Below, piece by piece: positions 4,620 through 48,268 of a stretch of DNA of 64,000 nucleotides (positions are counted from its first letter, which is position 1; each line of letters starts with the position of its first letter). The notes under the pieces were generated by a model. The model was not told the DNA's origin and ran no database searches. It worked only from the letters and a program-made list of their open reading frames with translations. Origin of the DNA: Actinomycetota bacterium (GTDB taxonomy: Bacteria > Actinomycetota > Geothermincolia > Geothermincolales > RBG-13-55-18); contig JAQVFR010000003.1 of assembly GCA_028697145.1 (NCBI GenBank), forward strand, positions 3,988 through 67,987, in the 5' to 3' direction. Both the position numbers and the translations under genes were made by a program.

Positions 4620-4714
4620 GCGGATGCGCAGCACCTCCACTGATATAATCAAGACGTGTCCAGGCGCGGCGGTCACGCGGCCGCCGCGATACCATCGGGA
4701 TGAAAGGAGTTCGC

Positions 4715-5530
4715 ATGTTCGGACCGGGTGATCCCACGGCGATCATCGGCGAGAGGATAAATCCCACCGGACGCGCCAGGCTGGCCGAGGAGCTGCGCGA
4801 GGGGAAGTTGGACAAGGCGCTCTCCGACGCGGCCGCCCAGGCGCAGGCTGGAGCGGACTATATAGACGTCAACGTGGGCGCGCCCGGCGTGGACGAGACG
4901 GTTCTGCTGCCCCGCCTGGTTAAGGCGGTGGCGGAGGAAACGGGCCTGCCCGTGTGCGTCGACTCCGCCGATCCCGACGCCCTGGCCGCGGCCCTGGCCG
5001 TATACGGGGTGCCTGAAGCCATCGTCAACTCCGTCACCGCGGACGACGAGAGCATGGACGCCGTCCTGCCCCTGGTGGGCAAAGCGGGGTGTTACGTCAT
5101 CGCCATGACCAAGGACATGGGCGGTATACCCGCCACCGCGGAGGAGCGCCTGGCCCGGGCGGAGCGCATAGTCGAGCGCGCCTCGGCCCATAGCATCCCG
5201 CCCGGGCGCATCCTCGTGGACTGCCTTACCATCCCCGCCGCCACCGAAACCAACGCGGCCGCCGTGACCCTGCGCTCCATTTCCCTCATCCGCGAGATGC
5301 TGGGCTGCCCGGTGGTCCTGGGCGCCTCTAACATCAGCTTCGGCATGCCCGAGCGGGCGGTCATCAACTCCGCCTTCCTCTGCCTCGCCATAGAGGCGGG
5401 GATGTCGGCGGCCATCGTCAACCCACTGGAACCGGGCCTGGTCCTCTCCATGCGCGCCGCCGATTTCCTCCTGGGCAAGGACCGCATGGGGCGCGCTTAC
5501 CTGAAATACTACCGGGCCCACAAGGCGTGA
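4715..5530 (+). CDS. Pterin-binding methyltransferase (methyl-H4folate/H4MPT:corrinoid methyltransferase, AcsE/MtrH-like)
   Basis: IGERINPTG motif at the N-terminus and a DHPS-like TIM-barrel signature. The RBS GAAAGGAG sits 5 nt before the ATG at 4715 (the ORF-track start 4700 lies upstream in frame). A TATAAT box is at about 4645. Confidence 0.75.
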   Translation: MFGPGDPTAIIGERINPTGRARLAEELREGKLDKALSDAAAQAQAGADYIDVNVGAPGVDETVLLPRLVKAVAEETGLPVCVDSADPDALAAALAVYGVPEAIVNSVTADDESMDAVLPLVGKAGCYVIAMTKDMGGIPATAEERLARAERIVERASAHSIPPGRILVDCLTIPAATETNAAAVTLRSISLIREMLGCPVVLGASNISFGMPERAVINSAFLCLAIEAGMSAAIVNPLEPGLVLSMRAADFLLGKDRMGRAYLKYYRAHKA

Positions 5531-5543
5531 CAAGAGAGGCAGC

Positions 5544-7421
5544 ATGGAATACGACATAACCGTGCAGCCCGGCGGGACGCGGTTCACCTGTCCGAGCGAC
5601 GAGGACCTCCTCACCGCACTGCACGGAGCCGGTATAAACGTGGAGAGTGTTTGCGGGGGCATGGGCACCTGCGGCAAGTGCCGTGTCCGCATCCTGGAGG
5701 GAAAGGTGACGGACCCAACCCTCGAGGAGGAGGACCATCTCTCCGAAGAGCAGCTCGACGGGGGCGAGAGGCTGGCCTGCCAGGTCTTCCCGGAGAGCGA
5801 CCTGGTCATCGAGTTGCCCGATTCCTCCCTGGCAACGGGAGAGAGGCTCCAGCTCGCTTGCGAGCTGGAGGTCGGGGGATTCGATCCGGCCGTCCGCTTC
5901 CACGACCTCGAGGTGGAGATACCCGCCTCACCGGGCGACCACGGCTCCGACCTCCTGCGCCTGCGCGATGCCCTGGGGTCATCGCACCCGGGAGTACGGC
6001 TCGAGGGCGCTGACCTGGAGGGATTGCGCACGCTCCCTACCTTGCTGCGCGAGGAAGGAGGGAACGTACGGGCGGTGACCCGCGCCGGCAAGCTGCTCGG
6101 CCTTCTTCCGAGAGCGCGGAACCCCTTGGGGCTCGCGGTGGACCTGGGGAGCACCAAGGTCGCTCTCTTCCTCTGCGACCTCGCGGAAGGGCGCGTGCTC
6201 GCGAGTCATGGTTTCCTCAACCCCCAGATTCGGCACGGGGAGGACATCGTCACCCGCATACAGTACGCGATGGACAGGGATGCGGCCCGCCTGGGTCAGT
6301 TGGTGGTGGAGGCAATAAACGACAACCTGGACGTGATCAGCGCCGACGCTGGTCTCGGCCGTGAAGACATCTTCGAGATGGTGTTGGTGGGGAACACCGC
6401 CATGCACCACCTCTTCCTCGCGCTGCCGGTAACCCAGCTCGCCATGAGCCCCTACCTCCCGGCCACCGACCTTCCCCTGGAGGTCAAGGCCAGGGACCTG
6501 GGTCTGCAACTCAATCCCGCGGCCGTGGTCTACCTGCCGCCGCCCATCGCCGGCTACGTGGGTTCCGACCACCTGGCGGCGGTGGCCGCCGCGCGCCTTT
6601 GGGAACGTCCGGAACCTTGCCTGCTCCTGGACATCGGCACCAACACCGAGGTCGCCCTGCACGCCGGGGGACGCATGCGCACGTGCTCCTGTGCCTCCGG
6701 TCCCGCCTTCGAGGGTGGGGGCCTGAGCCAGGGGATGCGTGCCGGAGACGGGGCAATCGCCAGGGTATCCGTCGATCCCGCTGCGGGCGGGCTCCGGCTC
6801 TCGGTCATCGGGGACGCAACTGCGAAGGGGATCTGCGGTTCGGGCATCCTCTCGGCGCTCGCCGCCATGGTGGAGACGGGAGCCGTTGACACATCCGGCC
6901 GCATGCGGGAGGACGGTCCCGGTGTGGAACGCCGCGGCGAGGAACTCCTTTTTTACCTCGCCCCCCCGGACTCAGGCAATCCCGAAGGGGTTGCGATCAC
7001 CCAGAACGACGTCCGCGAGATACAGAAGGCGAAGGGCGCCATAAGGGCCGGCGTGGACGCCCTCCTTGCCGAGGCGGGCATAGGCCACGGGGACCTGAAG
7101 GAGGTCGTCCTCGCCGGTGCATTCGGCACCTTTATCGACCCTGCCGACGCCCTCGCCATAGCGCTGCTTCCGCCCGTCCCCACGGGCCTGGTCAACCAGG
7201 TGGGAAACGCCGCCGGAGCCGGTGCGCGTGGCATGCTCTTCTCCGCCGGCGCGCGCGCCGAGGCAGAGGAGGTCGCCCGACGCCTGGAATACCTGGAGCT
7301 TTCCGCCTACCCCGGGCTGAGCAAGCTCTTCGCGGCCGGCATGTACCTGTCGCAGGAGACGGTGCGCGGGGCCAAGGGCCGCTTCGGCCTCCAGGCTCCT
7401 CCGGCCTCAGGACCGGACTGA
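5544..7421 (+). CDS. RACo-like reductive activator of corrinoid proteins (N-terminal [2Fe-2S] ferredoxin plus ASKHA/DUF4445 ATPase domain)
   Basis: The N-terminus carries a plant-type ferredoxin motif C-x4-C-x2-C...C (CGGMGTCGKCRV...LACQ). The C-terminal 450 aa is an ASKHA-type fold (DLGSTKVALF..., IGTNTEV). The 625-aa length matches the RACo family. Confidence 0.8.
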   Translation: MEYDITVQPGGTRFTCPSDEDLLTALHGAGINVESVCGGMGTCGKCRVRILEGKVTDPTLEEEDHLSEEQLDGGERLACQVFPESDLVIELPDSSLATGERLQLACELEVGGFDPAVRFHDLEVEIPASPGDHGSDLLRLRDALGSSHPGVRLEGADLEGLRTLPTLLREEGGNVRAVTRAGKLLGLLPRARNPLGLAVDLGSTKVALFLCDLAEGRVLASHGFLNPQIRHGEDIVTRIQYAMDRDAARLGQLVVEAINDNLDVISADAGLGREDIFEMVLVGNTAMHHLFLALPVTQLAMSPYLPATDLPLEVKARDLGLQLNPAAVVYLPPPIAGYVGSDHLAAVAAARLWERPEPCLLLDIGTNTEVALHAGGRMRTCSCASGPAFEGGGLSQGMRAGDGAIARVSVDPAAGGLRLSVIGDATAKGICGSGILSALAAMVETGAVDTSGRMREDGPGVERRGEELLFYLAPPDSGNPEGVAITQNDVREIQKAKGAIRAGVDALLAEAGIGHGDLKEVVLAGAFGTFIDPADALAIALLPPVPTGLVNQVGNAAGAGARGMLFSAGARAEAEEVARRLEYLELSAYPGLSKLFAAGMYLSQETVRGAKGRFGLQAPPASGPD

Positions 7422-7429
7422 TCAGGGCT

Positions 7430-8662
7430 TCATTCGCCGACGATGGCTTCGCCTGCCACCAAGGCCAGGAAGTCGTTGGAGCCGTCCTCGATCATGCCCG
7501 CGCGGGCGTCGCGGAAGAGCTTCTCTATGGCCGATTCCTTGGAAAGCCCGAATCCTCCCATGAGCTGCACCGCCTCACTGGCCACCTCGAAGGCGGCCTG
7601 GGTGCAGAAGATCTTGGAGGCGATGGAGTACTGCGTGAAGGGCGGATTGGTGTTGAAGTTGAACTCCACGACCGCACGGGAGAATGCCCGGCAGGCCTCC
7701 ACCTGCTTGAACATATGGAAGAGCTTGTAGCGCACCAGCTGGTGCTCTATGAGCTTCTTCCCGCCCTGCACCCGCTGCTTGCAATAGGCCAGCGCCTCCT
7801 CGTAACAGGCGCGCGCCACGCCGGTGAAAAATGCCCCCATGCAGGCGTTGGCAGTGCTGACGGTGATGTCGAGGATGGCCTCGTAGCTCTCTTCGTCGAT
7901 GATCATGTACTCCTTGGGCACCCTCACGTTGTCGAAATAGATCTCGCCCTGGTTCAGAGCGCGCTGGCCCAGTTTGTCCCATGGTTTGCCACGGGTCACG
8001 CCGGGCAGGTCAAGCGGGATGACGCAGATGCCGCCGCCGGCCATGCCCATTTCCGGCTCGATGGTGAGATAGGCGCACGCGTGGGTGGCGATGGTGCCGT
8101 TGGAGACCCAGGCGGCCTTGGTGCCGTTGATGACGTAGTCGTCCCCGTCCAGGGTGGCGCGGCAGGCGGTCCTGGCGATCTCCGGGTCGGAGAACTGTTC
8201 GGTGAAAGGCCCAAGAGTATCGGAGCCGTGGTCGGGCTCGGTGATGGCCCAGCAGCCGATGATCTTGGCCTCCTCGTCCTCGCAGAAGGGTATGATGATG
8301 TTATCGATGAGGAACTCGGTGGGCACCATGCTGGCGATGAAGGCCGGGAAACAGGCCACGCCGAAGGCGATCATGAAATCGACGCTCCCCCAGGATATCT
8401 CCTCGAAGAGCATGTGTACCTCCAGGGGCGAAAAGCCTCCTCCGCCGTAGATCTCCGGCAGGAGTATCTTGTGCATGCCTATCTTGTAGCCCTTCCTGAG
8501 CACGTCCCAGTAGATGTCCTCCCTGGCGATGACGTCCTCGGGCGTCAACTTGTCCAGCTCCAGGCTGGCGGGGCGCAGCACCTCTGCAGCGAAGGTGTGC
8601 ACCATATCCCGGTTCATCCTCTGCACCTTGGTGAGGCCTAGGTTGAGGTCAACATAACCCAC
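7430..8662 (-). CDS. Acyl-CoA dehydrogenase family protein
   Basis: ACAD-like middle and C-terminal domains (GCWAITEPDHGSD, GGFG..E..IEKLFRDAR). The ORF extends to 8731; a GTG at 8662 preceded by AAGGGGGA is the preferred start but is uncertain. Confidence 0.75.
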   Translation of the reverse strand: MGYVDLNLGLTKVQRMNRDMVHTFAAEVLRPASLELDKLTPEDVIAREDIYWDVLRKGYKIGMHKILLPEIYGGGGFSPLEVHMLFEEISWGSVDFMIAFGVACFPAFIASMVPTEFLIDNIIIPFCEDEEAKIIGCWAITEPDHGSDTLGPFTEQFSDPEIARTACRATLDGDDYVINGTKAAWVSNGTIATHACAYLTIEPEMGMAGGGICVIPLDLPGVTRGKPWDKLGQRALNQGEIYFDNVRVPKEYMIIDEESYEAILDITVSTANACMGAFFTGVARACYEEALAYCKQRVQGGKKLIEHQLVRYKLFHMFKQVEACRAFSRAVVEFNFNTNPPFTQYSIASKIFCTQAAFEVASEAVQLMGGFGLSKESAIEKLFRDARAGMIEDGSNDFLALVAGEAIVGE

Positions 8663-8802
8663 GACGGTATCCCCCTTTTTTCGGTGCCAGGTCTCGGTTA
8701 ACGAGTTACCTGGCAATGATTCCCATACCATTCGGTTCTTTACGTACCCCGGAACAGCCCCTGTATACTTCCGGGATTAACAACGAACAAGACCTGACCC
8801 AC

Positions 8803-10416
8803 TTACGAGTAGTCCTCCAACTTAAACACGTTATCGGCGCCTTCTGAGAACTCGTCCTTGAGCACGCGGTCGAGATGCTTCTCCGAAGCGCTCTTGGGGA
8901 TCTCGTTCACCACTTGGATGTAAGAGGGCACCGAGTTCGGCTCCAGCCCGTCCTTCGCCGTCTGGAACACCGAGGCGGGATCTATGGCCTTGCCCTCGAA
9001 GGGCGCGACCGCAGCGACCAGGTCGCTCTCGCCCGGCGCCCCCGAGGCGGCGGGTATGCCGTAGACGCAGACCTCGGAGATGTCGGGGTGCTCGCCGATG
9101 ACCTTCTCCACGTAGGTGGGGATGATGAAGTCCCCCGCCCGCCTCAGGCCGCCGCCCTCCTTGCGGTAGTCGAAGTACAACCACCCCTCCTCGTCCTTGT
9201 GCACCATGTCGCCGGTGCGCAACCAGCCCCCGCGGGTCTTGTCCTGCGAGTCCTTCTCCCTGCCGTAGTACTCCACCTCGGGCTTGACGTTCACGGCCCG
9301 CATGAGCAGCTCGCCGGTGACCCCGGGCGACACCTCGTTGTCGTTCTCGTCCACGACGATGGCCTCCTGTATGCCCTCCAGGGGCTTGCCGAAAGAGCCG
9401 ATGGGCCCCACGCCGATGGGATTGTAGGCGAAGCCGCCCTCCACCGCCCCGTACCACTCCAGGATCTTAACCCCGAACCTCTTCTCGAAGGGCTCCCAGA
9501 TGGGCGCGGGAGTGCCGGCGCTGATGACCACCTCCACGGGATTGTCGGCATCGTCGGGCTTGGGAGGCTCGTTGTAGATGCCCGCCATCATCCCGCCCAG
9601 CAGGGAGAAAGTGGTGCATCCGTACTTGCGGCAGATGTCCCAGATGCGGCTCTTGGTAAAACGCTGGCTGATCACCCCCAGTATGCCCATGGACAGCGCG
9701 GGCAGCAGGCTGATGGCCAGGGCGTTGCCGTGGGTGAGGGACAGGCCGGTGTAGATGACCGTCTCCGGCGTGTACTTCCAGATGAGGGTGGGGGCCAGTT
9801 GCGCGAACATGGCGGTGCGGGTGGACTTGATCACCACCCCCTTGGGATTGCCCGTCACCCCCGAGGTATAAATGATGGCCATGGGCAGGTTGGGGTCGTC
9901 TATCCTCCCCTCCACCTCGAAGACGTCCGGCCCGGCCAGTATCTCGTTTATGGTGGGGTACTTTTTCGCGAGGTCGGGGTCGGCGTCCGGCTTGAGGTTG
10001 AGCCAGATCCTCTCGATCCCCGGTATGTTTTTAACCACGCTCTCCACCTCGGGAAGGAGGTCGGCGGTGGTGATGATCCCCTTCGCCTTGCAGTCCTGCA
10101 GCATATACCCGAGCTTCTCCCCCTTGGTGCGCGGGTCGATGGGCACCGCGATCATCCCCAGCAGCGTGGCGGCACCCGTGGTGAAGACGGACTCGGGGTG
10201 GTTGCGCATAAGGGTGGCCACCGCGTCGCCCTTGCGGAGGCCGAATTCTCTGTACGCCCTGGCCATCTTGAAGGTACTGGCGGCTATCTCCCTGTAAGTA
10301 AGGGGTTCATCCGGATAGAGGCCGCCGTTCTCGAAGATCAGCCCCACCTTGTCCGGGTTCTCCTCCAGCCTCATCTCGATCATGTTGGACATCAACGCCG
10401 GGTTCTTCTCTCCCAT
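8803..10416 (-). CDS. AMP-dependent synthetase/ligase (acyl-CoA synthetase)
   Basis: AMP-binding motif YTSGVTGNPKGV plus TGD...DGW. The ATG at 10416 has the RBS GAAAGG 9 nt upstream. The ORF-track start at 10425 is a GTG directly abutting that RBS, so the ATG is more likely. Confidence 0.85.
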   Translation of the reverse strand: MGEKNPALMSNMIEMRLEENPDKVGLIFENGGLYPDEPLTYREIAASTFKMARAYREFGLRKGDAVATLMRNHPESVFTTGAATLLGMIAVPIDPRTKGEKLGYMLQDCKAKGIITTADLLPEVESVVKNIPGIERIWLNLKPDADPDLAKKYPTINEILAGPDVFEVEGRIDDPNLPMAIIYTSGVTGNPKGVVIKSTRTAMFAQLAPTLIWKYTPETVIYTGLSLTHGNALAISLLPALSMGILGVISQRFTKSRIWDICRKYGCTTFSLLGGMMAGIYNEPPKPDDADNPVEVVISAGTPAPIWEPFEKRFGVKILEWYGAVEGGFAYNPIGVGPIGSFGKPLEGIQEAIVVDENDNEVSPGVTGELLMRAVNVKPEVEYYGREKDSQDKTRGGWLRTGDMVHKDEEGWLYFDYRKEGGGLRRAGDFIIPTYVEKVIGEHPDISEVCVYGIPAASGAPGESDLVAAVAPFEGKAIDPASVFQTAKDGLEPNSVPSYIQVVNEIPKSASEKHLDRVLKDEFSEGADNVFKLEDYS

Positions 10417-10454
10417 GCATATCACCCTTTCAATGCGTCATGCGGCTTCCGCCC

Positions 10455-11096
10455 TCATTCCACCGCGCCCATGAAGCGCCGCGTGAAGGAGGGGAACTCC
10501 TCTGCGAACTTCTCCGCCCATTCCTCCTTCGTCCAGTACTTGTGGCGGTCGAAGAAGGGGTTGCGGACCTGGCAGCTCACTGCCACGCCGATGCAGAAAT
10601 CTACGTCCTCGATGAACTCGCATGCCGGGGCGGCCGCCCCGATGGTCTGAAAGACACGGCAGTGCAGCCCCATGTAATGGGCCACGGCCGCAGCCGCGTT
10701 GGCGGCCATGTGCACGTCGTAGACGACGAAATGGCAGCAGGGGCCGTTGATGATCGACTCCACGTCCTCCGCCTTGTTCAGCTCCTCGCAGGTAGCGAAG
10801 CCGCAGGCGCCGCAGTCGTAGTTATAGACGGACTTGCGCCTGGCCCCCAGGAGCAGGGCGCGCGTGTCCTGCTGCGCCAGGTCCACGAAGGCGCGGCCGT
10901 CGCGATTGAAGAGGGGCGAGACCTCGGCCACTCCCTCGCAGTAGCCAGACAGGTCGTCGAACTCCTCGGGCCCGATGGCCGATATCCTGATCTTGGGATG
11001 ACCGAACTTGAGCGCGGTGTTCGCCGCCACCGCCATGAGTTCCAGCGCCCGGTCGATGCCGCTCGCGAGGAGATCGTCACCGTTGATGATAGCCAT
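10455..11096 (-). CDS. Cys-rich ferredoxin-like protein (DUF2148-like, C-x2-C-G-x3-C), paralogue 1
   Basis: 213 aa containing YDCGACGFATCEE, GPCCHFVVYD and an additional AAAPAC Cys. The ATG at 11096 follows a GGGGGGG RBS. It is tightly stacked after its paralogue (stop TAG at about 11112). Confidence 0.55.
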   Translation of the reverse strand: MAIINGDDLLASGIDRALELMAVAANTALKFGHPKIRISAIGPEEFDDLSGYCEGVAEVSPLFNRDGRAFVDLAQQDTRALLLGARRKSVYNYDCGACGFATCEELNKAEDVESIINGPCCHFVVYDVHMAANAAAAVAHYMGLHCRVFQTIGAAAPACEFIEDVDFCIGVAVSCQVRNPFFDRHKYWTKEEWAEKFAEEFPSFTRRFMGAVE

Positions 11097-11111
11097 ATCT
11101 CTCACCCCCCC

Positions 11112-11783
11112 CTAGCAGTAGATGGACCGGAAGGTCGGGAATAGCCGGTGTATGAGGCGGTTCTGCAGGGTCTCGTCGTTGTATTCCGCCCACTCTCTGG
11201 GCAGGTCTGCGAAGGGGCTCTTCTCCGTCACCGCGGCGAGGAAGCCCAGGGCGATGTCGCACTTGTAGGGCAGCAGCCCCATCCTCAGGGCGGCGGCCCC
11301 CACCGACATCTTGATGGCATGGTCGATACCCAGCTGGCGCGCCAGGGTCACGGCTCCGTTCAGGGCATAGGCCATGTTCATGGAGCGCAGCAGGCAGAAC
11401 GGGCCGCGGAAAGCGACCGACGGCGCGTCCGGCACCCTCTCGGCGTCACGCCACATGTCACAGAGCAGGTGCCCGCAGAGGTTGCAGTTGGAGTCCATGG
11501 GATCGTGGCTCGAGCGGCGGTCGGCCATGATCATGACCACGTCCGAGTCGCGCACCTGCACCGCGTCGGAGCGGAAAAATTCCCAGCGCGGGTTGTCGGC
11601 GGCCATCCTGTCGATGGCGATAGCCAAATCCTCTATCTCGTCCCTGGAATCCAGGACGTGGATGCTTATCTCGTCCACCCCGCCCACGCGGGGCGAGGTC
11701 GTCGCCGAGGCCAGGAGGAGCTTGCAGGCAAGCCTGACGCTTTCCTCCCTCCTTTCCTCGTACTCCCTCATCTTTCTTTCCAT
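11112..11783 (-). CDS. Cys-rich ferredoxin-like protein (DUF2148-like), paralogue 2
   Basis: Carries SNCNLCGHLLCDMW, the same C-x2-C-G-x3-C spacing as paralogue 1. The ATG at 11783 follows a GGGAGGGGG RBS. Confidence 0.5.
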   Translation of the reverse strand: MERKMREYEERREESVRLACKLLLASATTSPRVGGVDEISIHVLDSRDEIEDLAIAIDRMAADNPRWEFFRSDAVQVRDSDVVMIMADRRSSHDPMDSNCNLCGHLLCDMWRDAERVPDAPSVAFRGPFCLLRSMNMAYALNGAVTLARQLGIDHAIKMSVGAAALRMGLLPYKCDIALGFLAAVTEKSPFADLPREWAEYNDETLQNRLIHRLFPTFRSIYC

Positions 11784-11867
11784 GATGGGACCCCCTCCCT
11801 GCAAAGGAAACTCTTACGAAAACCTCCGGCATGCGCCTTTCCGCATCGCCGTCTCCCGGCAATAAGG

Positions 11868-12269
11868 CTACATGGGAAGGCCGTATTCCTCGCAGATAGC
11901 TGGGTAGGCCTCGTATGCCGGCTTGAGCAAGGGGAGCATGCCGAGGATCTTGGCCATGGGACCCTTGGCCTTGACCTTCCTCTTGGCCAGGGCCACGGGC
12001 AGCTTCAGGTTCTGCAGCCAGAAATTATGGCAGTCGTCGCCGGCCAGCCACATGATCACGTCGCCCTCGGCGTCGGTGGCTCCCACGGCCAGCCCCGGCT
12101 TGTCCGTGCCGTGCAGCAGCCAGATCTCTCCATCGGGGTCGTTGATGACGAACTGTACATTGATGTTCTCGTCGTTGAACTTCTGGCTGACGCTTTCGTT
12201 TTCGAGCAGTTTCGTGAAGAGCTTGCCAAGGACCTCGTACATGAACTCAGTGTCCTTGAATACCGGCAT
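11868..12269 (-). CDS. SCP2 sterol-carrier/lipid-transfer domain protein
   Basis: 133 aa beginning MPVFKDTEFMYEVLGKLF...WLLHGTDKPG...GDDCHNFWLQNLKLPVALAKRKVKAKGPMAKILGM, which fits the SCP2 fold consensus. The RBS AAAGGGG sits 9 nt upstream of the ATG at 12269. The ORF-track N-terminal extension is R/P-rich and judged non-coding. Confidence 0.7.
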   Translation of the reverse strand: MPVFKDTEFMYEVLGKLFTKLLENESVSQKFNDENINVQFVINDPDGEIWLLHGTDKPGLAVGATDAEGDVIMWLAGDDCHNFWLQNLKLPVALAKRKVKAKGPMAKILGMLPLLKPAYEAYPAICEEYGLPM

Positions 12270-12330
12270 AGCGCACACCCCTTTCACTCGCACCTTTTCC
12301 TCACACGCCCAGACTTGACAGCCATATAAC

Positions 12331-12355
12331 ATACCCAAGTATGATACCAAGGTAT
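12331..12355. promoter_or_regulatory. Operator-like double palindrome, site 1, between the divergent SCP2 operon and tetR
   Basis: Sequence ATACCCAAGTATGATACCAAGGTAT, made of two adjacent 12-mers of the ATACC-NN-GGTAT type. It is 22/25 identical to the site at 17427. A TTGACA hexamer lies at about 12314. Confidence 0.6.
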
Positions 12356-12537
12356 CTAATGCGGTGCCCCTCGTCAAGTGGAATAGTCTTGTATTTTCCG
12401 CGAACGGGGGGGCGGCGGACAAACGCCCGGGGAGCGTAGCGGGCGCGCGGCATCCGCGCAGGTTGTTCGCGCTCCCGGGGCGTGGTAGATTCTGTTGTAG
12501 CGACATGATCGCTTTGAATCGGGCAACGGGGGACAAC

Positions 12538-13146
12538 ATGGCGAAGAAGCGGACTGCGCCCAGGACGGAGAAAGGCATAAACACGCGGCAGGCGATTTTC
12601 GATACCGCCATCGCCCTGTTCGCGAAGCGGGGCTATGACAAGGTCACCATCGACGACATCTGCGACAAGGTCGGGGTCACCAAGGGCGCCTTCTACAACT
12701 ATTTCGAGTCCAAGGACCAGATCATCCTGGAGGAGTTCATGCGCATGGACGATCACTACGTCAAGGTCGCGCATGACATAGCGGACTTAAAGAGCAGCGC
12801 GGAGAAACTGCGCGTGTTCAACCGCGAAGCGGTCAAGCTCATGGCCGACCTCGGAGTCACCATGATGAAGGTGGTCTATCACTCCCAGATCGCTCCGAAC
12901 ATGCGCAGACCCTATCTCATGGACGGCAGGCGCTCCCTCTATAAGATCACGAACGAGCTTATAAAGGAGGGCCAGGAGAAGGGAGAGATCCGCGACGACA
13001 TCGCCAGCGAGGAGATGGCGGTCATGCTCATCAACTGCTTCCGCGGCCAGATCTATCACTGGTGCCTGGCAAACGGCTCCTTCGACCTGGTGGGCACCTG
13101 CGACACGCTTTTCGACCTCATAATGGATCGCCTCACGCCGCGCTAG
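12538..13146 (+). CDS. TetR/AcrR-family transcriptional regulator
   Basis: N-terminal helix-turn-helix AIFDTAIALFAKRGYDKVTIDDICDKVGVTKGAFYNYF. The first ATG after the divergent intergenic region is at 12538. Confidence 0.85.
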   Translation: MAKKRTAPRTEKGINTRQAIFDTAIALFAKRGYDKVTIDDICDKVGVTKGAFYNYFESKDQIILEEFMRMDDHYVKVAHDIADLKSSAEKLRVFNREAVKLMADLGVTMMKVVYHSQIAPNMRRPYLMDGRRSLYKITNELIKEGQEKGEIRDDIASEEMAVMLINCFRGQIYHWCLANGSFDLVGTCDTLFDLIMDRLTPR

Positions 13147-13308
13147 ACGCGTCGTCCGGCCTCGAGGCGGCTTATGCGGTGACCCCGCGATCGTCTCTGC
13201 AGCCCGCTTCGGCGCTCGATGCTCCATGCGGTTAAAGTGGCGGCTCTACCGTGTCGATTAATACCAGAGCAAGCGATAACTTATATTCTGGACAGGGGAG
13301 TCTGCAAC

Positions 13309-14358
13309 ATGAAGCGCTGTTCCGCATGCGGTGTTCCCAGAAAGATAACGTCCACCCACAGATGGCTGGATAACGGCACCATGGTGGAGACGAACAATCC
13401 CGATCACCGTATGATCTTCATAGAAAGCGACAACATAGGCGGCGTCTTCACGCGCATCGAGGAAATCCTCGGCCTCCCCATCGAGCACCTCGTCATCGAG
13501 AGCCAGCGCAGGATGACCTACGATTACGTCCGCAGCCTCATGCCGTCCATGGTGCTGAAGTTATTCCGCATGACCTCCATCAGGCCTCTGGCGAAAAGCG
13601 TGACCGAGCTGGGGAGACTCGTAGGCCTGGGAGACGTGGAACTTCTCTCTATGCGCATCAAGGGAGACGAGGGGGACTACGTGAAGCTGGGAGGGAGAAA
13701 CCTCTTCTACATACCTGCCTATTGCGGCATGGTGGTCGGCTCCATGGAGGCGCTGTCCGGACAGGAATGCAGCATCAGCTACGAGGAGACCTCGCCGGGT
13801 TACTACGAGGTGACCACGTCTGTCACGACCCACCCCGTGGAGCTGAAGGAGAGGTTCAAGCCACGGGAGTATTCGCGCAAAGAAGGGGACCTGCGCTTGC
13901 CGCGGTGCTCCCGCTGTGGGGGGCCGTCGGCGCTCGCGGGCTACGATTTCCTCTACGACGAGGGCATCATCCTGCACCGGGCGAACGCACGGCGCATGCT
14001 CTTCGACGGCCCCGCGGAGTTCGAGGCCATCTTCTCCGAGCTGGAGAAGGAGCTGGGCGAGGATATTCCGCAGGTGATAATCGAAGCTCAGAAGCTCTTC
14101 GTCAAGAGCGGATTCTACGACCTCGGCGAGATCATGGACACCGATGCCTTCAGGGAACACCTGGCGCTGCGCGGTCTTGGCAACCTGAGGGACATGGAGT
14201 ACGGAGAGGACCACCTGCGCCTGCGCATCGAGAACCCGTGCCTTCACCTGCTCCTCGCCGGCCTGGCCCAGGGAGTATTCGAGCTCGCGAGCGACCGCGA
14301 GGCCCGGGTTGCCTGGGAGCTGGCGGGAGACGGCGACCTGACCGTAGAGGCATCCTAG
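13309..14358 (+). CDS. Hypothetical protein with an internally duplicated CxxCG-headed domain (paralogue of 37380..38465)
   Basis: Begins MKRCSACGVPRK...; a second repeat starts at LPRCSRCGGP... Each repeat has a conserved ...ARRMLF.G...FEAI...LGE...VIIEAQ core. The RBS AGGGGAG sits 9 nt upstream. No confident family recall. Confidence 0.6.
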   Translation: MKRCSACGVPRKITSTHRWLDNGTMVETNNPDHRMIFIESDNIGGVFTRIEEILGLPIEHLVIESQRRMTYDYVRSLMPSMVLKLFRMTSIRPLAKSVTELGRLVGLGDVELLSMRIKGDEGDYVKLGGRNLFYIPAYCGMVVGSMEALSGQECSISYEETSPGYYEVTTSVTTHPVELKERFKPREYSRKEGDLRLPRCSRCGGPSALAGYDFLYDEGIILHRANARRMLFDGPAEFEAIFSELEKELGEDIPQVIIEAQKLFVKSGFYDLGEIMDTDAFREHLALRGLGNLRDMEYGEDHLRLRIENPCLHLLLAGLAQGVFELASDREARVAWELAGDGDLTVEAS

Positions 14359-14598
14359 GTACGCCGTCGACCTCCGCACTGCTTGGACCGTTGTCGGCGA
14401 CCGCATTCCGCCGATCCTTTTTACCGCGTCATTAGTATTCGACCGATGTGCCCGTGATCATGCGGACCATGCCCAGCATGGAGCAGGCGGCCAGGGCAAC
14501 AACGGCTTAAGCAGAATGTTCACCCGCGGGTTCTTCGCCTCGAGGCTTTCTACCAGGCCTATTCTCACAACCTCCCTCGAGACCGGGACCGCGAGGGC

Positions 14599-15597
14599 TC
14601 AGGGCATCTCCGTCCAGACCTTGCCGCCCTTGCGCCAGGTGATGGGCGGTAATTCCCTCTCCACCATGGTGTCCGCGTTCACGCGCGGGTAGCCCAGGAC
14701 GATGGCCGAAGCCACCTTGTAGGGCCACTTTATCCCCAGCTCCCTCTTGAGCCAGGGAAGGAAATTGATGCCGATGCTGAACGACAGCCAGCAGGTGACC
14801 AGCCCCAGGGAGTGGGCGGCCAGGACCATGTTGGTGCCGCAGATGCCAACGTCAATCCCCGGGTCGTTCATCCCCCGCTTGTCCATGAGGATCAGGATCA
14901 GGCACGGGGCCCCCAGGAAAACGTCTTTCGGCTTGAGGATGGCCGTGCCTCCCGATATGCCCCTCTGATCCATCAACCCGGGAGCCAACGCGCATAAGAG
15001 GCTGAGTATCCTCCTCGTCAGGGGATTGGTCTTGCCCGTCCAGTAGAAATTGGTGAGCAGCCTCCAGAAGGGGTCCATCTTCTCCGCGATATAGTCCATC
15101 TCCGCCCGGTCATTGATCACGATAAAGGCCCAGGGCTGGCAGTTGCCGTGGGAGGGGGCGAAGCGTCCGGCTTCGACCACGCGGCGCACAAGCACGTCCG
15201 GCACGGGGTCCTTGGAGTAGATGCGGTTGCTGCGGCGTTTGTAGATTACCTCCTCGACCGGCGTCAGCCCCTCGATACCCTCCACCTCCGGTATTTTCGG
15301 GTAACCGTCATCACCATGGTAGGACATGGTCCTGAAGATGCCTTCCTCCACGTTGTAGAAGCCCCGCATGCCGACTGCGCCCTTCTCACAGTGGGAGATA
15401 CAGGCGGAACAGGAAAAACATACCTTCCCATCGATCAGCCGCGCCTTCTTGTCCACGATCTCCAGGCAGCCCATGGCGCAGGCCTTGACGCAGTTCCCGC
15501 AGCCCGTACACTTCTCGGCGTCGATGATGATTTCCGAGAGCGACCACGCCTCCGGGTGAGCGGGCAAGTAAGCCTTCTTGAACTTTGCAGACGCCAT
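14599..15597 (-). CDS. Two-[4Fe-4S] ferredoxin domain fused to a nitroreductase-family domain
   Basis: CTGCGNCVKAC and CFSCSACISHC cluster motifs are followed by a nitroreductase-like fold (RRSNRIY..., HGNCQPW). The ATG at 15597 follows AAGGGGGA; an alternative ATG is at 15612. Confidence 0.75.
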   Translation of the reverse strand: MASAKFKKAYLPAHPEAWSLSEIIIDAEKCTGCGNCVKACAMGCLEIVDKKARLIDGKVCFSCSACISHCEKGAVGMRGFYNVEEGIFRTMSYHGDDGYPKIPEVEGIEGLTPVEEVIYKRRSNRIYSKDPVPDVLVRRVVEAGRFAPSHGNCQPWAFIVINDRAEMDYIAEKMDPFWRLLTNFYWTGKTNPLTRRILSLLCALAPGLMDQRGISGGTAILKPKDVFLGAPCLILILMDKRGMNDPGIDVGICGTNMVLAAHSLGLVTCWLSFSIGINFLPWLKRELGIKWPYKVASAIVLGYPRVNADTMVERELPPITWRKGGKVWTEMP

Positions 15598-15790
15598 CGT
15601 TTCCCCCTTCATCTCATACCTTTTACCATACGTACGCGTGCCAGGCCTGCACTCGCTGCACTCCGTTCAGGTGACTGGCACCGCCGCCTTCGGCGCTGTC
15701 GCTTCCGCGATGCATCCTGTCGAAACCTTTTTCATGCCTCGCGCCCCCCAGCCCGATAACTATGGGGTCGGTCGCCGCGAGTCCGCGAGC

Positions 15791-16077
15791 GGGACCGTTA
15801 CCCCAAGGTTCGGGCCAACCGAAGCCTTCCGTCTGCTGGACCGCCGCCAGCACGGCGGGCAAGGTGCTCGGAGGAGCTTGCGACGACGACCATCCTTGCC
15901 GCCGGGCTCCTGCGGAAGCGGGACCGTTGCCCCAAGGCTCGGGCCAACCGAAGCCTTCCGTCTGCTGGACCGCCGCCAGCACGGCGGGCAAGGTGCTCGG
16001 AGGAGCTTGCGACGACGACCATCCTTGCCGCCGGGCTCCTGCGGAAGCGGGACCGTTGCCCCAAGGCTCGGGCCAAA
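15791..16077. repeat. 129-bp tandem direct repeat, about 2.2 copies, intergenic
   Basis: The unit gggaccgtt(g/a)ccccaagg(c/t)tcgggccaaccgaagccttccgtctgctggaccgccgccagcacggcgggcaaggtgctcggaggagcttgcgacgacgaccatccttgccgccgggctcctgcggaagc starts at about 15791, 15920 and 16049. Copies are near-identical. All six frames give R/P/G-rich low-complexity translations. Confidence 0.85.
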
Positions 16078-16078
16078 A

Positions 16079-17338
16079 TCAACCCACGCGCTCCAATATA
16101 TGGATGCACATGGCCGCTTCGCCGGTGCCAATGAAGCCACCGCCGTTCTCTGACATGGCTATCCTCGCCCCCTCCACCTGGCGCTTGCCGGCCTCGCCCC
16201 GCAACTGCGTCACCAGCTCGACCAGTTGGGCGATACCAGAGGCCCCGATGGGATGTCCACGGCATTCCAGCCCTCCCGAGGTGTTGACGGGGAGCTTGCC
16301 CCCCAGCTTGGTGGCACCGGACTCCGCGAAGGGGCCGCCCTCTCCCTCTCCGCAGAAACCCAGTTCCTCGCACTGCAACAGCTCGCCGAAGGCGGTGGCG
16401 TCGTGCACCTCGGCCATGTCGATGTCCTCGGGGCCCACGCCGGCCACCTCGTATGCCTTCCTGCTCAGGCGTTCCCCGATGAGGTCCATGTCGCCTCCCT
16501 CGGGGATGGCGCCTCCGGTGAGCACCGATGCAAGGATCTTCACCGGACGCGCGCCGGTGAAACGCTTCAAGGCCTTCCCCGAGCAGAGTATCGCCGCCGT
16601 GGCCCCGTCCCCCATGGGCGCGCACATGGCGCGGGTGAGGGGGTAAGCCACCGGCCGGTCATTGAGGACCTCCTCGAGGGTCATATCCATCTGGTACTGG
16701 GCCAGGGGGTTCAGGGATGAATGGTAATGGTTCTTGGCGGCGATTATCGCCAGTTGCCGCTGCGTGGTGCCGTATTTCTCCATGTGCATCCGCGCCGCCG
16801 CGGCATAGAGGTCCATGAAGGGAGAGCGGGCGCCCTCGCCCCCTCCCTTCTTGCCCCCTCCCGTCGCCTCGGCCTCGGCCGCCTTCTTCTTCTCGTCCTC
16901 CATGAAAGCGGCAAGCACGACACGGATGAACTCCACGTCCGCGTTGGACATGAACATCTCGAACATGGCCTGCTTGTTGTCCGGGTTGAACATCTTCTCC
17001 ACCCCGATGGCCAGCGCCACGTCGTAAGCGCCCGCCCTGATGCCGAGGTAGGCGCCGTTCACGGCGCTGGTCGCCCCGGCGCAGGCGTTCTCTACGTTCA
17101 TGGTCGGGATGCCCTCGATGCCAAGCGGGACCAGCGCCACCTGGCCGCGTATGGAATGCTGGCCGGTGACTATCCCCCAGAAGGAATTGGAGAACCACGC
17201 CGCCTCAATATCCTTCTTCTGGACCGGGCAGTCCGCCAGCAGGTTGTCGATGACCTCCGCGGTCATCTGCTTGATGCTCTTCTCCGGGTACTTGCCGAAG
17301 CGGAACATCCCCACGCCGATGATATAGACGTCCTCCAT
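16079..17338 (-). CDS. SCP-x/nonspecific lipid-transfer-protein-type thiolase (thiolase-like superfamily)
   Basis: Begins MEDVYIIGVGMFRFGKY...; has NVENACAGATSA with an active-site Cys, and a C-terminal GGLECRGHPIGASG. The RBS AGGAGG sits 6 nt upstream of the ATG at 17338. Confidence 0.8.
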   Translation of the reverse strand: MEDVYIIGVGMFRFGKYPEKSIKQMTAEVIDNLLADCPVQKKDIEAAWFSNSFWGIVTGQHSIRGQVALVPLGIEGIPTMNVENACAGATSAVNGAYLGIRAGAYDVALAIGVEKMFNPDNKQAMFEMFMSNADVEFIRVVLAAFMEDEKKKAAEAEATGGGKKGGGEGARSPFMDLYAAAARMHMEKYGTTQRQLAIIAAKNHYHSSLNPLAQYQMDMTLEEVLNDRPVAYPLTRAMCAPMGDGATAAILCSGKALKRFTGARPVKILASVLTGGAIPEGGDMDLIGERLSRKAYEVAGVGPEDIDMAEVHDATAFGELLQCEELGFCGEGEGGPFAESGATKLGGKLPVNTSGGLECRGHPIGASGIAQLVELVTQLRGEAGKRQVEGARIAMSENGGGFIGTGEAAMCIHILERVG

Positions 17339-17426
17339 CCCTGCCTCCTTTGTTAAGACTTCGACGTCGCACAGACAGAACAGGCGCCTCAGCAGCACTA
17401 TGCGATCGCCAACCGCAGACAGTTTA

Positions 17427-17451
17427 CATACCCTGGTATGATACCATGGTA
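17427..17451. promoter_or_regulatory. Operator-like double palindrome, site 2, about 90 bp upstream of the thiolase start
   Basis: Sequence ATACCCTGGTATGATACCATGGTAT; its second 12-mer is a perfect palindrome. TTTACA is immediately upstream. Confidence 0.6.
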
Positions 17452-17474
17452 TTTTAATCCCCCGGCAGCGTCAA

Positions 17475-18539
17475 TTACGGCTGCCAGCCTTCCTCGGAGG
17501 CCTCTAGCAGGCGCAGCAAGGCCTCCTGGCTCGTGGTGGGATACATCTGACAATACTTGGCATCTCGCATAAGGCGTTCCATGCCATAGTCGCGCATGTA
17601 ACCGTAGCCACCGTGAATCTGTACACCGTCGATGGCCGACTTGCACGCGCTCTCCGTGCAGCGCAGCCAGGCCACCACGGCTGGCGCGATCCCGCCGTCC
17701 TCGCAGGCCCTCTTGACCAGGGTTCTCCCCTGCTCCACCGCCGCGAGCATCTCGGCCAGGAATATGCGCATCTGCTGGTGCTCTACGATCATCTTCCCCG
17801 CCTGATACCTCTCGCTCGCGTAGGCATAGGCCTTGTGCAGCGCGCTGCGCGAAATCCCGTTGGCTATGGACGCCAGGCCCAGCAGCATCACCCTTTCCAC
17901 CGCCCCTGCCATGTCCCCCCCGGAGATGATGTTGGAAGGCTCGGCGCCGTCGAGACGGACCGACCCGGCCCGGGCAGCCCTCAGCCCCATCTGATACGCC
18001 TCGGGTGTCGTCTCCACGCCGCGAGTGTCGCCGCGCACCGTGAGGGCTTGCGTCCCCCCCGAGCCAGCCGGGATCAGGGTGATGAAGGAGCATTCCTGGA
18101 CGTTGAAGGCGAAGGGCACCCGTCCCTGCACCCTCCCCCCCGAGAACGAAACATCGCCGGGGAAGGCGAGACATGCGGGATAATCGTCGGGGCTCACGCC
18201 GGTGATCAGCGCCTCGGGCTCGCCCATGGCCGACGGCAGCAGGGCGGTATTATGCGCCAGCAGGGAGGCGGCGACTCCCGCCTCCTCCACCGCTATCTCC
18301 TCCAGGGCGACACAGAAGGCGTATTCGTCCAGGCCCCCTCCCCCGCATTCCTCGGGGATGAGGGCCGCCAGCATTCCAATGTCACCCGCTTTGGCGATGA
18401 CCTCCCTGACCCGCCCCCGGGTCGGCTCCAGGTCGAGTTGCTCCGCCTGCTGCGAGAGTTCTTTTTGCGCGAAGGCCGCTGCGGTCTCTCGCAGTATCCT
18501 GTACTCCTGGTCCTCGTGAAATTCCGGCAGCCTGATCAT
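17475..18539 (-). CDS. Acyl-CoA dehydrogenase family protein, short form (354 aa), candidate beta-type subunit
   Basis: Has the ACAD C-terminal helical domain (IHGGYGYMRDYGMERLMRDAK). Its ATG overlaps the upstream TAG (TAGATG), indicating translational coupling to 18540..20015. Confidence 0.7.
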   Translation of the reverse strand: MIRLPEFHEDQEYRILRETAAAFAQKELSQQAEQLDLEPTRGRVREVIAKAGDIGMLAALIPEECGGGGLDEYAFCVALEEIAVEEAGVAASLLAHNTALLPSAMGEPEALITGVSPDDYPACLAFPGDVSFSGGRVQGRVPFAFNVQECSFITLIPAGSGGTQALTVRGDTRGVETTPEAYQMGLRAARAGSVRLDGAEPSNIISGGDMAGAVERVMLLGLASIANGISRSALHKAYAYASERYQAGKMIVEHQQMRIFLAEMLAAVEQGRTLVKRACEDGGIAPAVVAWLRCTESACKSAIDGVQIHGGYGYMRDYGMERLMRDAKYCQMYPTTSQEALLRLLEASEEGWQP

Positions 18540-30608: not shown

Positions 30609-30653
30609 TTTAATCCCTCCTTTTCTCTTTCCAGTTGGTGAATCCGGTCAATT

Positions 30654-30687
30654 AAAAAACGGCCTCTTTGTTTCGAAAAGAGGCCGG
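30654..30687 (-). terminator. Rho-independent terminator (minus strand)
   Basis: 9-bp stem cggcctctt/aagaggccg followed on the minus strand by TTTTTT. Confidence 0.6.
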
Positions 30688-30927
30688 TTTCACTATTAGC
30701 TCAGAACGTTATTAGTGACCATCTCATAAAACGTTCGTCATCGCTTCCTCTTAGACTGATCTAAACCTAGTGCTTTCATCTATCTAGTAAGTCCATCCTT
30801 AAGATAAAGCACGGACTCGTGCCCTTCTATGATTCAGATCAGGCAACTTTGATCATGAGAACGGCAGTTGGACAGCGGCAGTCTCGAGGCGTATCCGGGG
30901 CGGCGCGAACCTTCTGCTCCGTAATGC

Positions 30928-31170
30928 TCAGCCACCTCGGGTACGCTTTTCATGCCTCTTCGTCCTTGTCCAGACGATCAGCACGATCGATATAAAGAGA
31001 AGTACGGATGCGGCCAGCCAGCCGATAATGCCCGCCGTGAGTAAGGCATCGAGGTTGGCGGAACTGCCTACTATCGTGCAGACCAGGGCCAGAACGAGCG
31101 CGAGAAGCGCCATGATCAACATGATCCTTGCGACGGTTTTCATCCCTGCTCCCCCGTCCTTATCCGGCAA
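30928..31170 (-). CDS. Small hypothetical membrane protein
   Basis: 80-aa ORF with two hydrophobic helices and a basic C-terminus. It lies in a relatively AT-rich stretch between the two surface-protein genes. Confidence 0.3.
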   Translation of the reverse strand: MPDKDGGAGMKTVARIMLIMALLALVLALVCTIVGSSANLDALLTAGIIGWLAASVLLFISIVLIVWTRTKRHEKRTRGG

Positions 31171-41883: not shown

Positions 41884-41931
41884 CGTCATTTGCTCCCTTC
41901 GAATCGATGTTCCTTACCGCTAGCCCCGTCC

Positions 41932-48263: not shown

Positions 48264-48268
48264 GGCGA

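Follow-up and report, generated by a model that had tools for sequence, protein, structure and literature searches.

Two derived DUF2148 proteins with a predicted iron-sulfur site, paired in a conserved acyl-CoA gene cassette of anaerobic bacteria

In the 64,000-nucleotide stretch of an Actinomycetota genome analysed in this study (the window), two adjacent genes, here called DufB and DufA, lie within a conserved cassette of genes for acyl-CoA metabolism. We propose that their products form an A/B heterodimeric [4Fe-4S] oxidoreductase, DufAB, which is probably flavin-dependent and would carry out a redox step on a CoA thioester, likely the reduction of a C=C bond. We give this reading a probability of about 40%. 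The genes, their paralogy, the invariant Cys residues, the fold and the conservation of the operon are shown below, while cluster binding, the heterodimer, the flavin, the direction of the electron flow, the reaction and the substrate are inferred.

Results

A preliminary description of this DNA had pointed to two adjacent genes for proteins of 213 and 223 aa, and both minus-strand open reading frames were found at positions 10455-11783, together with the Cys motifs that it had named (DCGACGFATC and NCNLCGHLLC). The two genes are in one reading frame and are separated by a gap of 15 nt with a GGGGGGTGAG ribosome-binding site. In Pfam, both proteins matched DUF2148 (PF09918) with scores well above the cut-off of 25 bits (64.8 bits for DufA and 55.1 bits for DufB), as the preliminary description had expected. 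Judged from their sequences, DufA and DufB are distant paralogues, with 23% identity in BLASTP (E=3e-10) and E=2e-17 in the profile-profile comparison; the tandem paralogy first suggested is real though distant.

DUF2148 is a small family, with ~580 clusters among 1.84 billion representatives, and we found no assigned function, solved structure or paper for any of its members. The full-text literature searches for DUF2148, PF09918, COG4739 and IPR019224 returned no paper, and those on combinations of nitroreductase, Fe-S, SCP2, acyl-CoA dehydrogenase (ACAD) and anaerobes returned nothing relevant. The PDB sequence search with DufA and DufB also gave nothing relevant, NCBIfam had no model for DufA, DufB, the SCP2-like protein of the cassette or a 379-aa neighbour, and no characterised homologue or solved structure was found for the pair. 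The cassette is not mentioned in a proteogenomics paper on Desulfobacteraceae (PMC11887813). A sister A-like subfamily (P0216 / P0360) was observed on a single contig, which ends at the gene.

The alignment of 45 orthologues of each protein revealed four invariant Cys residues, which are C95, C98, C103 and C121 in DufA and C100, C103, C108 and C130 in DufB. The same motif, C-x2-C-x4-C-x16-21-C with a G-P-x-C end, was kept in 100% of 77 canonical DUF2148 cluster representatives, and at the sequence level the motif of DufA and DufB is not a product of chance. Since four invariant Cys fit one [4Fe-4S] cluster, one such cluster is predicted in each subunit, and DufA and DufB would thus be Fe-S proteins. 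The Pfam 'FeS' model (PF04060) gave 19.5 bits for DufA, below its cut-off of 23, and no match for DufB, while two canonical relatives (P0222 and P0334) passed it with 24.8 and 25.6 bits. The PF04060 motif is the [4Fe-4S] site of the corrinoid Fe-S protein (CFeSP) and of RnfB. The C-x2-C-G-x3-C...C spacing is common to DUF2148, RnfB and the N-terminus of the CFeSP large subunit, but in the latter two the motif forms an independent N-terminal domain, whereas in DufA and DufB it is a loop inserted in another fold. No Fer4 family of Pfam matched DufA or DufB at E<=0.01, and the spacing differs from CxxCxxCxxxCP; a neighbouring 337-aa protein matched 12 Fer4 families in the same search.

The preliminary description had likened both proteins to ferredoxin-domain proteins, and this part did not hold. 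According to the structure models, the fold of DufA and DufB is the alpha/beta fold of the nitroreductase / flavin-reductase superfamily and not that of a ferredoxin, and Foldseek agreed with this, with TM-scores of only 0.4-0.55. The nitroreductase families PF00881 and PF14512 of Pfam did not match either protein. The comparison with the nitroreductase domain encoded in the window itself (hhalign) aligned just the expected helix-loop-strand and was not significant (E=0.11). Because of the unmatched PF00881, this E-value and the low TM-scores, flavin binding is an extrapolation from a distant fold match. The classical FMN-phosphate motif of nitroreductases, R-x-S-x-R, was not recognisable, and invariant Arg/Lys residues were found near the C-termini (R184 and R206 in DufA; K188, R209, R213 and R219 in DufB). 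Taken as a whole, DufA and DufB look like subunits of a catalytic type of oxidoreductase with an inserted cluster loop and not like small electron carriers.

The FMN-dependent nitroreductase / flavin-reductase superfamily normally forms obligate dimers with active sites at the subunit interface. DufA and DufB differ from its members (NfsA/NfsB, iodotyrosine deiodinase, BluB, the FbiB C-domain and the CLA-ER enone reductase) in the missing PF00881 match and R-x-S-x-R motif, in the additional Cys loop of ~30 residues with its presumed [4Fe-4S] cluster, and in the use of two different subunits. The AlbA/AlbB cyclodipeptide oxidase has no Fe-S cluster, depends on oxygen, forms filaments and acts on peptides, and shows no sequence kinship to DufA and DufB.

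The canonical DUF2148 proteins (PF09918 / COG4739, 'uncharacterized protein containing a ferredoxin domain') share with DufA and DufB the four invariant Cys and the motifs around R-D, D-x-R and K...F-D-R. They have ~175-190 aa and are encoded by single genes, for example beside thioredoxin, TM1506 or NadA on archaeal contigs, whereas DufA and DufB form an invariable pair that is tied to an acyl-CoA operon. In addition, DufA and DufB have each gained a conserved C-terminal tail of ~30 aa and lost part of the canonical motifs (A-R-T-A-P-K, D-N-R and K...F-D-R). The motif subsets that they keep are complementary: DufB retains T-x-P-[K/R]-x-x-G, D154 and K188, and DufA retains R65, R147 and F-D-R184. 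In terms of sequence, the two families are derived subfamilies of DUF2148.

The C-terminal tails are invariant in sequence, yet they were left unplaced in the monomer models (pLDDT 30-58), a combination typical of regions that dock onto a partner. Moreover, DufA and DufB are neighbours wherever the contig extends far enough. This strict adjacency, the complementary motifs and the invariant tails suggest that DufA and DufB form an A/B heterodimer. In a natural fusion protein, P0274, DUF2148 is linked to a module of the GltD/DPD type (Fer4_20 + Pyr_redox_2) with NAD(P)H, FAD and two [4Fe-4S] clusters. This layout puts DUF2148 where a chain of Fe-S clusters delivers its electrons.

The neighbours of the pair were those previously described, with genes for an SCP2-like protein and an acyl-CoA ligase on its two sides and the ACAD gene following (Table 1). 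Wherever there is room for it, the SCP2-like gene directly precedes DufB, and its orthologue in another locus (L003) scored 30.7 bits with PF02036. The ligase gene is directly downstream of DufA in all loci, and the closest solved relative of its product is FATP2 / very-long-chain acyl-CoA synthetase (E=2e-41). The ACAD gene always comes after the ligase gene, and the closest PDB relatives of its product are short- and medium-chain ACADs. The real start of ACAD is probably near 8662-8665, because the open reading frame has 433 codons' worth of protein (433 aa) and the orthologues have 406-411 aa. The cassette genes are likely co-transcribed, since they lie on the same strand with gaps of 15-84 nt, have no terminator-like site between them and keep the same order elsewhere. 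No RNA element of Rfam was found in 7000-18000.

Table 1. Positions of the cassette genes and associated features in the window
Feature	Position	Strand	Description
SCPx-type ('lipid-transfer') thiolase	16079..17398	-	PF22691 + PF00108; unlinked here
TetR-family regulator	12538..13146	+	divergent; 202 aa from MAKKR; PF00440 + TetR C-terminal domains
Candidate TetR operator	12343..12356		perfect 14-bp palindrome GATACCAAGGTATC in the SCP2/TetR divergent promoter region
SCP2-like protein	11868..12269	-	first cassette gene; 133 aa; PF02036 20.5 bits, just below the 21.3 cut-off
DufB	11112..11783	-	223 aa; ATG start MERKM; DUF2148 paralogue; nitroreductase-like fold (models) + inserted Cys loop
DufA	10455..11096	-	213 aa; ATG start MAIING (read from sequence); DUF2148 paralogue; nitroreductase-like fold (models) + inserted Cys loop
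AMP-forming acyl-CoA ligase	8803..10425	-	PF00501 + PF13193; likely start ATG at 10416
Acyl-CoA dehydrogenase (ACAD)	7430..8731	-	all three ACAD Pfam domains

The palindrome GATACCAAGGTATC lies ~75 nt upstream of the SCP2 start, and ~0.09 chance matches to it are expected in the window. Equivalent sites of the form [GC]ATAC[CT]NNGGTAT[CG] were found upstream of SCP2 in L001, L006, L007 and L009-L013. Two further operator-like palindromes (17427-17440 and 17440-17453) stand just upstream of the gene for the SCPx-type thiolase, and these sites suggest that the thiolase probably belongs to the same regulon as the cassette. A functional link to the adjacent genes for RACo and a pterin-binding protein was considered and rejected; the association is confined to the Actinomycetota lineage, and the genes are convergently oriented.

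The cassette was found in at least 338 genomes of Actinomycetota, Desulfobacterota, Chloroflexota, Spirochaetota and Acidobacteriota, and its hosts are restricted to anaerobes, with Desulfosarcina widdelii PP31 and Thermotomaculum hydrothermale among the cultured ones. The order SCP2-DufB-DufA-Lig-ACAD was invariant in all of the ~80 loci with enough flanking sequence, so that the conserved-neighbourhood check came out in favour of the arrangement first described. Beyond the cassette, the flanking genes are unrelated between genomes. A TetR gene is beside the cassette in L001-L004 and L086-L088, and the pair does lie in an acyl-CoA operon flanked by TetR, an arrangement that is very strongly conserved across loci.

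Genes for an SCPx-type thiolase and one or more SDRs usually follow ACAD, and in most other phyla the thiolase gene comes directly after it. The operons of Actinomycetota have neither thiolase nor SDR and consist of the core SCP2-DufB-DufA-Lig-ACAD; in the window, the thiolase gene is unlinked and the operon has no SDR. None of the ~80 cassettes across the phyla encodes a hydratase of the crotonase or MaoC type. The beta-oxidation set of the cassettes inspected is therefore incomplete, with ligase, ACAD, thiolase and SDR present and the hydratase absent. Nor does the cassette have a gene for an electron donor. The subfamily typing of ligase, ACAD, SDR and thiolase with NCBIfam and the PDB gave only a generic indication of the substrate, the thiolase being of the SCPx/BbsB type and the ligase nearest to the FATP2 / very-long-chain synthetases.

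Discussion

The preliminary description had suggested that the pair forms a dedicated electron-transfer or substrate-activating module, and such a role is plausible. In the mechanism that we propose, DufA and DufB would be two diverged subunits of one enzyme, each with the alpha/beta fold of the nitroreductase type, and the four Cys of the inserted loop would bind one [4Fe-4S] cluster in each subunit. The clusters may carry single electrons between an external partner, such as a ferredoxin or the flavin of ACAD, and an active site at the interface, which would probably hold a flavin. There, the CoA thioester produced by the neighbouring ligase would undergo a two-electron redox reaction, most likely the reduction of an activated C=C bond of the enoyl, dienoyl or enone type. 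In anaerobes, the whole TetR-controlled module may serve to handle a carboxylic acid of hydrophobic and probably bulky or branched structure.

The same working logic is known from FadH and dihydropyrimidine dehydrogenase (DPD), in which the electrons pass from NAD(P)H through FAD, [4Fe-4S] and FMN to a C=C bond. FadH also acts on a CoA ester in beta-oxidation, and the P0274 fusion mimics the layout of FadH/DPD. This is a functional analogy only, as the FMN domain of FadH and DPD is a TIM barrel and not a nitroreductase fold, and the DufAB operon lacks the NAD(P)H/FAD module. Against a C=C reductase, it must also be said that a plain beta-oxidation cycle offers no evident use for such an enzyme and that what the cassette lacks is a hydration step.

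A different role for the clusters would be that DufAB replaces ETF as an electron relay for ACAD and does not touch the substrate. It would accept the electrons of the ACAD FADH2, or deliver them if ACAD runs as an enoyl-CoA reductase, and its [4Fe-4S] clusters may pass the ACAD electrons to ferredoxin or a membrane acceptor. The irreducible conserved core of the cassette, in which the pair stands with ligase and ACAD, would suit such a relay; no ETF gene was found in or beside any cassette examined, and four-Cys ligation of a cluster is characteristic of electron transfer. EtfAB is likewise a two-subunit redox protein that is genetically coupled to ACAD in anaerobes (Bcd-Etf, CarCDE), but its fold is unrelated to that of DufAB, it holds FAD and has no cluster except in the ferredoxin domain of CarE, and no ETF family of Pfam matched DufA or DufB. 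On the other hand, DufA and DufB have many invariant polar residues beyond the Cys loop, more than a relay would need, and the canonical DUF2148 genes are single and have no ACAD gene nearby. To our knowledge, proteins of the nitroreductase fold are catalysts with small-molecule pockets and not protein-to-protein shuttles. Elsewhere, specialised ACADs usually rely on the housekeeping ETF, and electron transfer from acyl-CoA (about -10 mV) to ferredoxin is energetically very unfavourable. We therefore regard the relay as possible but unlikely.

The absence of a hydratase from the ~80 cassettes, in which DufA and DufB are always present beside ligase, ACAD, SDR and thiolase, raises the question of whether DufAB itself supplies the missing step as an Fe-S (+ flavin) hydratase/dehydratase or isomerase. 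It would then convert the product of ACAD, 2-enoyl-CoA or a variant of it, into the hydroxyacyl-CoA for the SDR in a redox-neutral, possibly radical reaction, for which 4-hydroxybutyryl-CoA dehydratase, with [4Fe-4S] and FAD, is an analogue. The compact operon of T. hydrothermale, with its overlapping genes, has no crotonase or MaoC gene either. However, all four cluster ligands of DufAB are Cys, so an Fe site left open as in aconitase or AbfD is not expected, and we know of no hydratase with a nitroreductase-type fold. Generic hydratases are also encoded elsewhere, in the window by an ECH gene (26087-26896) and a MaoC pair (47838-49288), and in L088 by an ECH gene near the cassette. For these reasons, we consider the hydratase function improbable.

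The interface pocket might instead bind a corrinoid or another non-flavin cofactor and catalyse a reductive elimination and not a hydride transfer; corrinoids are known from reductive dehalogenases, QueG and CblC, whose cores have the nitroreductase fold. The fold-match scores to FMN enzymes were ~2x as high, and the RACo gene is convergent, belongs with the gene for the pterin-binding methyltransferase and does not accompany the cassette in other phyla, which makes this cofactor very improbable. It is just as hard to believe that the Cys residues form a zinc or structural site in a non-redox scaffold or substrate-binding accessory for ligase and ACAD: four-Cys sites can bind Zn, but the Cys spacing and the G after the second Cys match the PF04060 model, and redox chemistry is indicated both by the fusion with an Fe-S/FAD module of the GltD type and by the occurrence in anaerobes only.

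Conclusions

The present analysis places DUF2148 on the nitroreductase fold with an inserted, predicted [4Fe-4S] site, and this placement corrects the database label 'ferredoxin-like' for the family. It also describes a derived A/B pair that is welded into an acyl-CoA module of 5 to 8 genes, a module which has spread over at least five phyla of anaerobes. The two cultured hosts, the TetR repressor, whose candidate operator could help to reveal the inducer, and the defined partner enzymes make this a testable system. Going further, we raise the idea, to which we attach little confidence, that DufAB represents a previously unrecognised class of Fe-S (flavo)enzymes on the nitroreductase fold, which would carry out a non-canonical acyl-CoA step in a hydratase-independent variant of beta-oxidation. 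The candidate steps would be a hydration, radical or redox-assisted, that takes the place of enoyl-CoA hydratase, or a dehydrogenation/reduction coupled with ACAD. If this is true, a hydratase-independent beta-oxidation of bulky or branched lipids would be widespread in anaerobes. The cassette offers a route to the substrate and possibly to a new type of reaction in the anaerobic degradation of lipids and organic acids.

Gene Organization and Regulation

DufA and DufB, as we named the two adjacent DUF2148 genes, belong to a run of five tightly spaced minus-strand genes from the SCP2-like gene to the acyl-CoA dehydrogenase (ACAD) gene, with gaps of about 84, 15, 38 and 70 nt and no terminator-like site found between them. 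DufB and DufA lie in one reading frame; between them are a stop codon and 15 nt, which include the ribosome-binding site GGGGGGTGAG. The coordinates, protein lengths and Cys motifs quoted for this pair in the preliminary description were all correct.

Features of the DufAB cassette and its surroundings
Feature	Position	Strand	Remark
Pterin-binding (methyltransferase-type) gene, then RACo	4700-7421	+	RACo, reductive activator of corrinoid enzymes; pair convergent with ACAD
ACAD	7430-8731	-	
AMP-forming acyl-CoA ligase	8803-10425	-	
DufA	10455-11096	-	213 aa
DufB	11112-11783	-	223 aa
SCP2-like gene	11868-12269	-	133 aa
Palindrome GATACCAAGGTATC	12343-12356		Between SCP2 and TetR genes
TetR gene	12538-13146		Divergent from the SCP2-to-ACAD run
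CxxC protein gene	13219-14358	+	379 aa; directly downstream of TetR
Fer4-nitroreductase gene	14599-15612	-	337 aa
129-bp tandem repeat	15788-16076		2.2 copies, 98% identity; between thiolase and Fer4-nitroreductase genes
SCPx-type thiolase	16079-17398		Unlinked to the cassette
Overlapping operator-like palindromes CATACCCTGGTATG, GATACCATGGTATT	17427-17453 (starts 17427, 17440)		Directly upstream of thiolase
Two abutting ACAD-like genes	17475-20015	-	354 and 491 aa; directly upstream of thiolase
Two large repeat-protein genes	28509-34289	opposite strands	SdrD/SpaA/CarboxypepD_reg repeats
HpaB-family gene	40435-41889	-	4-Hydroxybutyryl-CoA dehydratase-type
MaoC/hot-dog hydratase-like ORF pair	47838-49288	-	Overlapping as listed

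The palindrome GATACCAAGGTATC is perfect, and about 0.09 matches of its type are expected by chance. Sites of the form [GC]ATAC[CT]NNGGTAT[CG] were found at the equivalent position in eight related loci and also ahead of ACAD or thiolase in some loci. To regard GATACCAAGGTATC as the candidate for the TetR operator that had been proposed is a reasonable inference. Because the two palindromes preceding the thiolase gene are similar to the SCP2 upstream site, this unlinked thiolase may share the TetR regulon of the cassette. The 379-aa protein carries two CxxC pairs (CSACG, CSRCGG) and had no match in Pfam or NCBIfam; its gene adjoins TetR, sometimes in duplicate, in three related loci (L006, L007 and L009). 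In its arrangement, the ACAD-like pair, whose 354-aa product lacks the middle domain, is similar to the heteromeric alpha2-beta2 ACADs with which actinobacteria degrade steroid side chains. The window is rich in acyl-CoA metabolism, including the MaoC pair, the HpaB-family gene and several more ACADs and ligases. The GC content dips to 0.54 at 30-32 kb (about 0.63 elsewhere), flanked by the repeat-protein genes, which encode probable surface proteins.

Distribution of the Cassette

With one genome scanned for each species, at least 338 loci were found to encode a DufA relative. Gene order was followed by tblastn with the proteins of the window in 80 retrieved loci and five others, and every locus with sufficient flanking sequence kept the order SCP2-DufB-DufA-ligase-ACAD. 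In phyla other than Actinomycetota, genes for an SCPx-type thiolase and one or two SDRs nearly always come next after ACAD. Desulfosarcina widdelii PP31 has one classical SDR and one of the 3-beta-HSD/epimerase-type extended kind; some genomes carry the two as a fusion. The cassette of Thermotomaculum hydrothermale is compact, with overlaps among its eight genes, which run from TetR through to SDR. The genes flanking the cassette are completely different from genome to genome, and therefore the cassette is a self-contained module. By label, its hosts are Actinomycetota, Desulfobacterota (Desulfobacterales, Syntrophales/Smithella and Desulfomonilia), Chloroflexota/Dehalococcoidia, Spirochaetota/Leptospirales and Acidobacteriota. 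One protein in an Actinomycetota MAG has 100% identity with DufB, and the window is accordingly from an anaerobic, Geothermincolia-type actinobacterium. None of the cassettes examined contains an enoyl-CoA hydratase gene or an ETF gene. The position of RACo is kept in seven related Actinomycetota loci and not in other phyla.

Family, Cysteine Motif and Fold

The Pfam family DUF2148 (PF09918) was matched by DufA at 64.8 bits and by DufB at 55.1 bits (cut-off 25). The Cys motif of DufA matched PF04060 ('FeS') below the threshold, while canonical single-gene DUF2148 members pass that cut-off. The paralogy of DufA and DufB claimed earlier is real but old (23% identity, BLASTP E=3e-10; profile-profile E=2e-17), and the orthologues of each number in the hundreds. 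Among 1.84 billion cluster representatives, an exhaustive HMM search (E<=1e-3) gave only 582 DUF2148 clusters, most of about 175-190 aa. The A (DufA) and B (DufB) families both differ from canonical members in ending with a conserved tail of about 30 residues, and they hold complementary parts of the canonical motif set: B retains the N-terminal T-x-P-[K/R]-x-x-G element, D154 and K188, and A retains R65, R147 and F-D-R184. Judged by HMM and motif, DufA and DufB are DUF2148 members forming two derived subfamilies.

Four Cys are invariant in 45-sequence alignments of A (C95, C98, C103, C121) and B (C100, C103, C108, C130), and all 77 canonical cluster representatives compared have the equivalent four. 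In the corrinoid iron-sulfur protein and RnfB, a [4Fe-4S] cluster is ligated by this C-x2-C-x4-C-x16-C pattern, and we therefore infer one such cluster in each subunit.

A PDB sequence search with DufA and DufB found no relative. The AlphaFold2 model of DufA was confident (pLDDT 88, pTM 0.81) and that of DufB reasonable (pLDDT 79, pTM 0.76); the C-terminal tails, invariant in sequence, were poorly placed in the monomer models (pLDDT 30-58). Foldseek led to the nitroreductase superfamily with modest TM-scores (0.4-0.55). According to these models, DufA and DufB have the nitroreductase fold, into which a Cys loop is inserted after the second strand and before the long central helix. They resemble enzymes of the superfamily in fold and, on the reading proposed below, in mode of action, but fail its sequence tests, as HMMs and profile comparison detected no kinship, and FMN binding is putative. 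Of the earlier term "DUF2148-type ferredoxin-domain", the first half stands by Pfam; the second does not, and the database phrase 'ferredoxin-like' is misleading, since no ferredoxin fold was among the listed matches and no Fer4 HMM matched. The pair is neither a ferredoxin nor an ETF. The 337-aa protein, a 2x[4Fe-4S] ferredoxin domain fused to a classical nitroreductase domain with RRSNR, adds another Fe-S-fed nitroreductase-type enzyme to this neighbourhood and is kept near the cassette in the related Actinomycetota loci L001, L009 and L011 (37% in L064).

Proposed Function of DufAB

Proteins of the nitroreductase fold normally occur as obligate dimers whose active sites lie at the interface. 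This dimeric fold, the strict co-occurrence, the complementary motif retention and conserved tails needing a partner suggest that DufA and DufB, each with a putative [4Fe-4S] cluster, would form an A/B heterodimer. A flavin would be held at the interface, and the clusters would feed or drain this site with single electrons at a time. The site would act on the CoA thioester made by the ligase.

Among the best 150 family matches, the sole long fusion is the library protein P0274 (747 aa), in which DUF2148 is naturally linked to a Fer4_20 + Pyr_redox_2 module, the NAD(P)H/FAD/2x[4Fe-4S] electron-input unit known from dihydropyrimidine dehydrogenase and the small subunit of glutamate synthase. This GltD-type fusion puts DUF2148 where an Fe-S chain delivers its electrons, the usual place of a terminal reductase. 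Activated C=C bonds are reduced by nitroreductase-fold enzymes such as CLA-ER and FbiB, and FadH and dihydropyrimidine dehydrogenase use the [4Fe-4S]-to-FMN logic proposed here, although their fold differs. On these grounds, we tentatively propose that DufAB acts as a reductase, or as a reversible dehydrogenase, on an activated double bond of the CoA ester, with a probability of roughly 0.4.

It is doubtful that DufAB is instead an ETF-like relay for ACAD. The minimal conserved core and the cassettes without ETF fit such a relay, but the nitroreductase-type fold and the many invariant non-Cys residues fit it poorly, and canonical members occur without ACAD nearby; their single-copy genes lie in unrelated contexts, adjoining thioredoxin, TM1506 and NadA in archaeal contigs. 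An Fe-S/flavin hydratase filling the hydration step absent from every cassette is genomically attractive, with 4-hydroxybutyryl-CoA dehydratase as a precedent, but it is quite unlikely, as the cluster ligands are all four Cys and generic hydratases are encoded elsewhere in these genomes. Corrinoid binding by DufAB and a structural Zn site at its Cys are both highly improbable.

The SCP2-like protein, the ligase (nearest to FATP2/very-long-chain synthetases) and the SCPx/BbsB-type thiolase suggest, none of them specifically, that the substrate is a hydrophobic acid that is long, bulky or alpha-branched. No characterised homologue or structure was found, and no publication in the openly accessible literature. 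The DufAB pair is clean and widely distributed, and it has cultured hosts and a clear experimental path.
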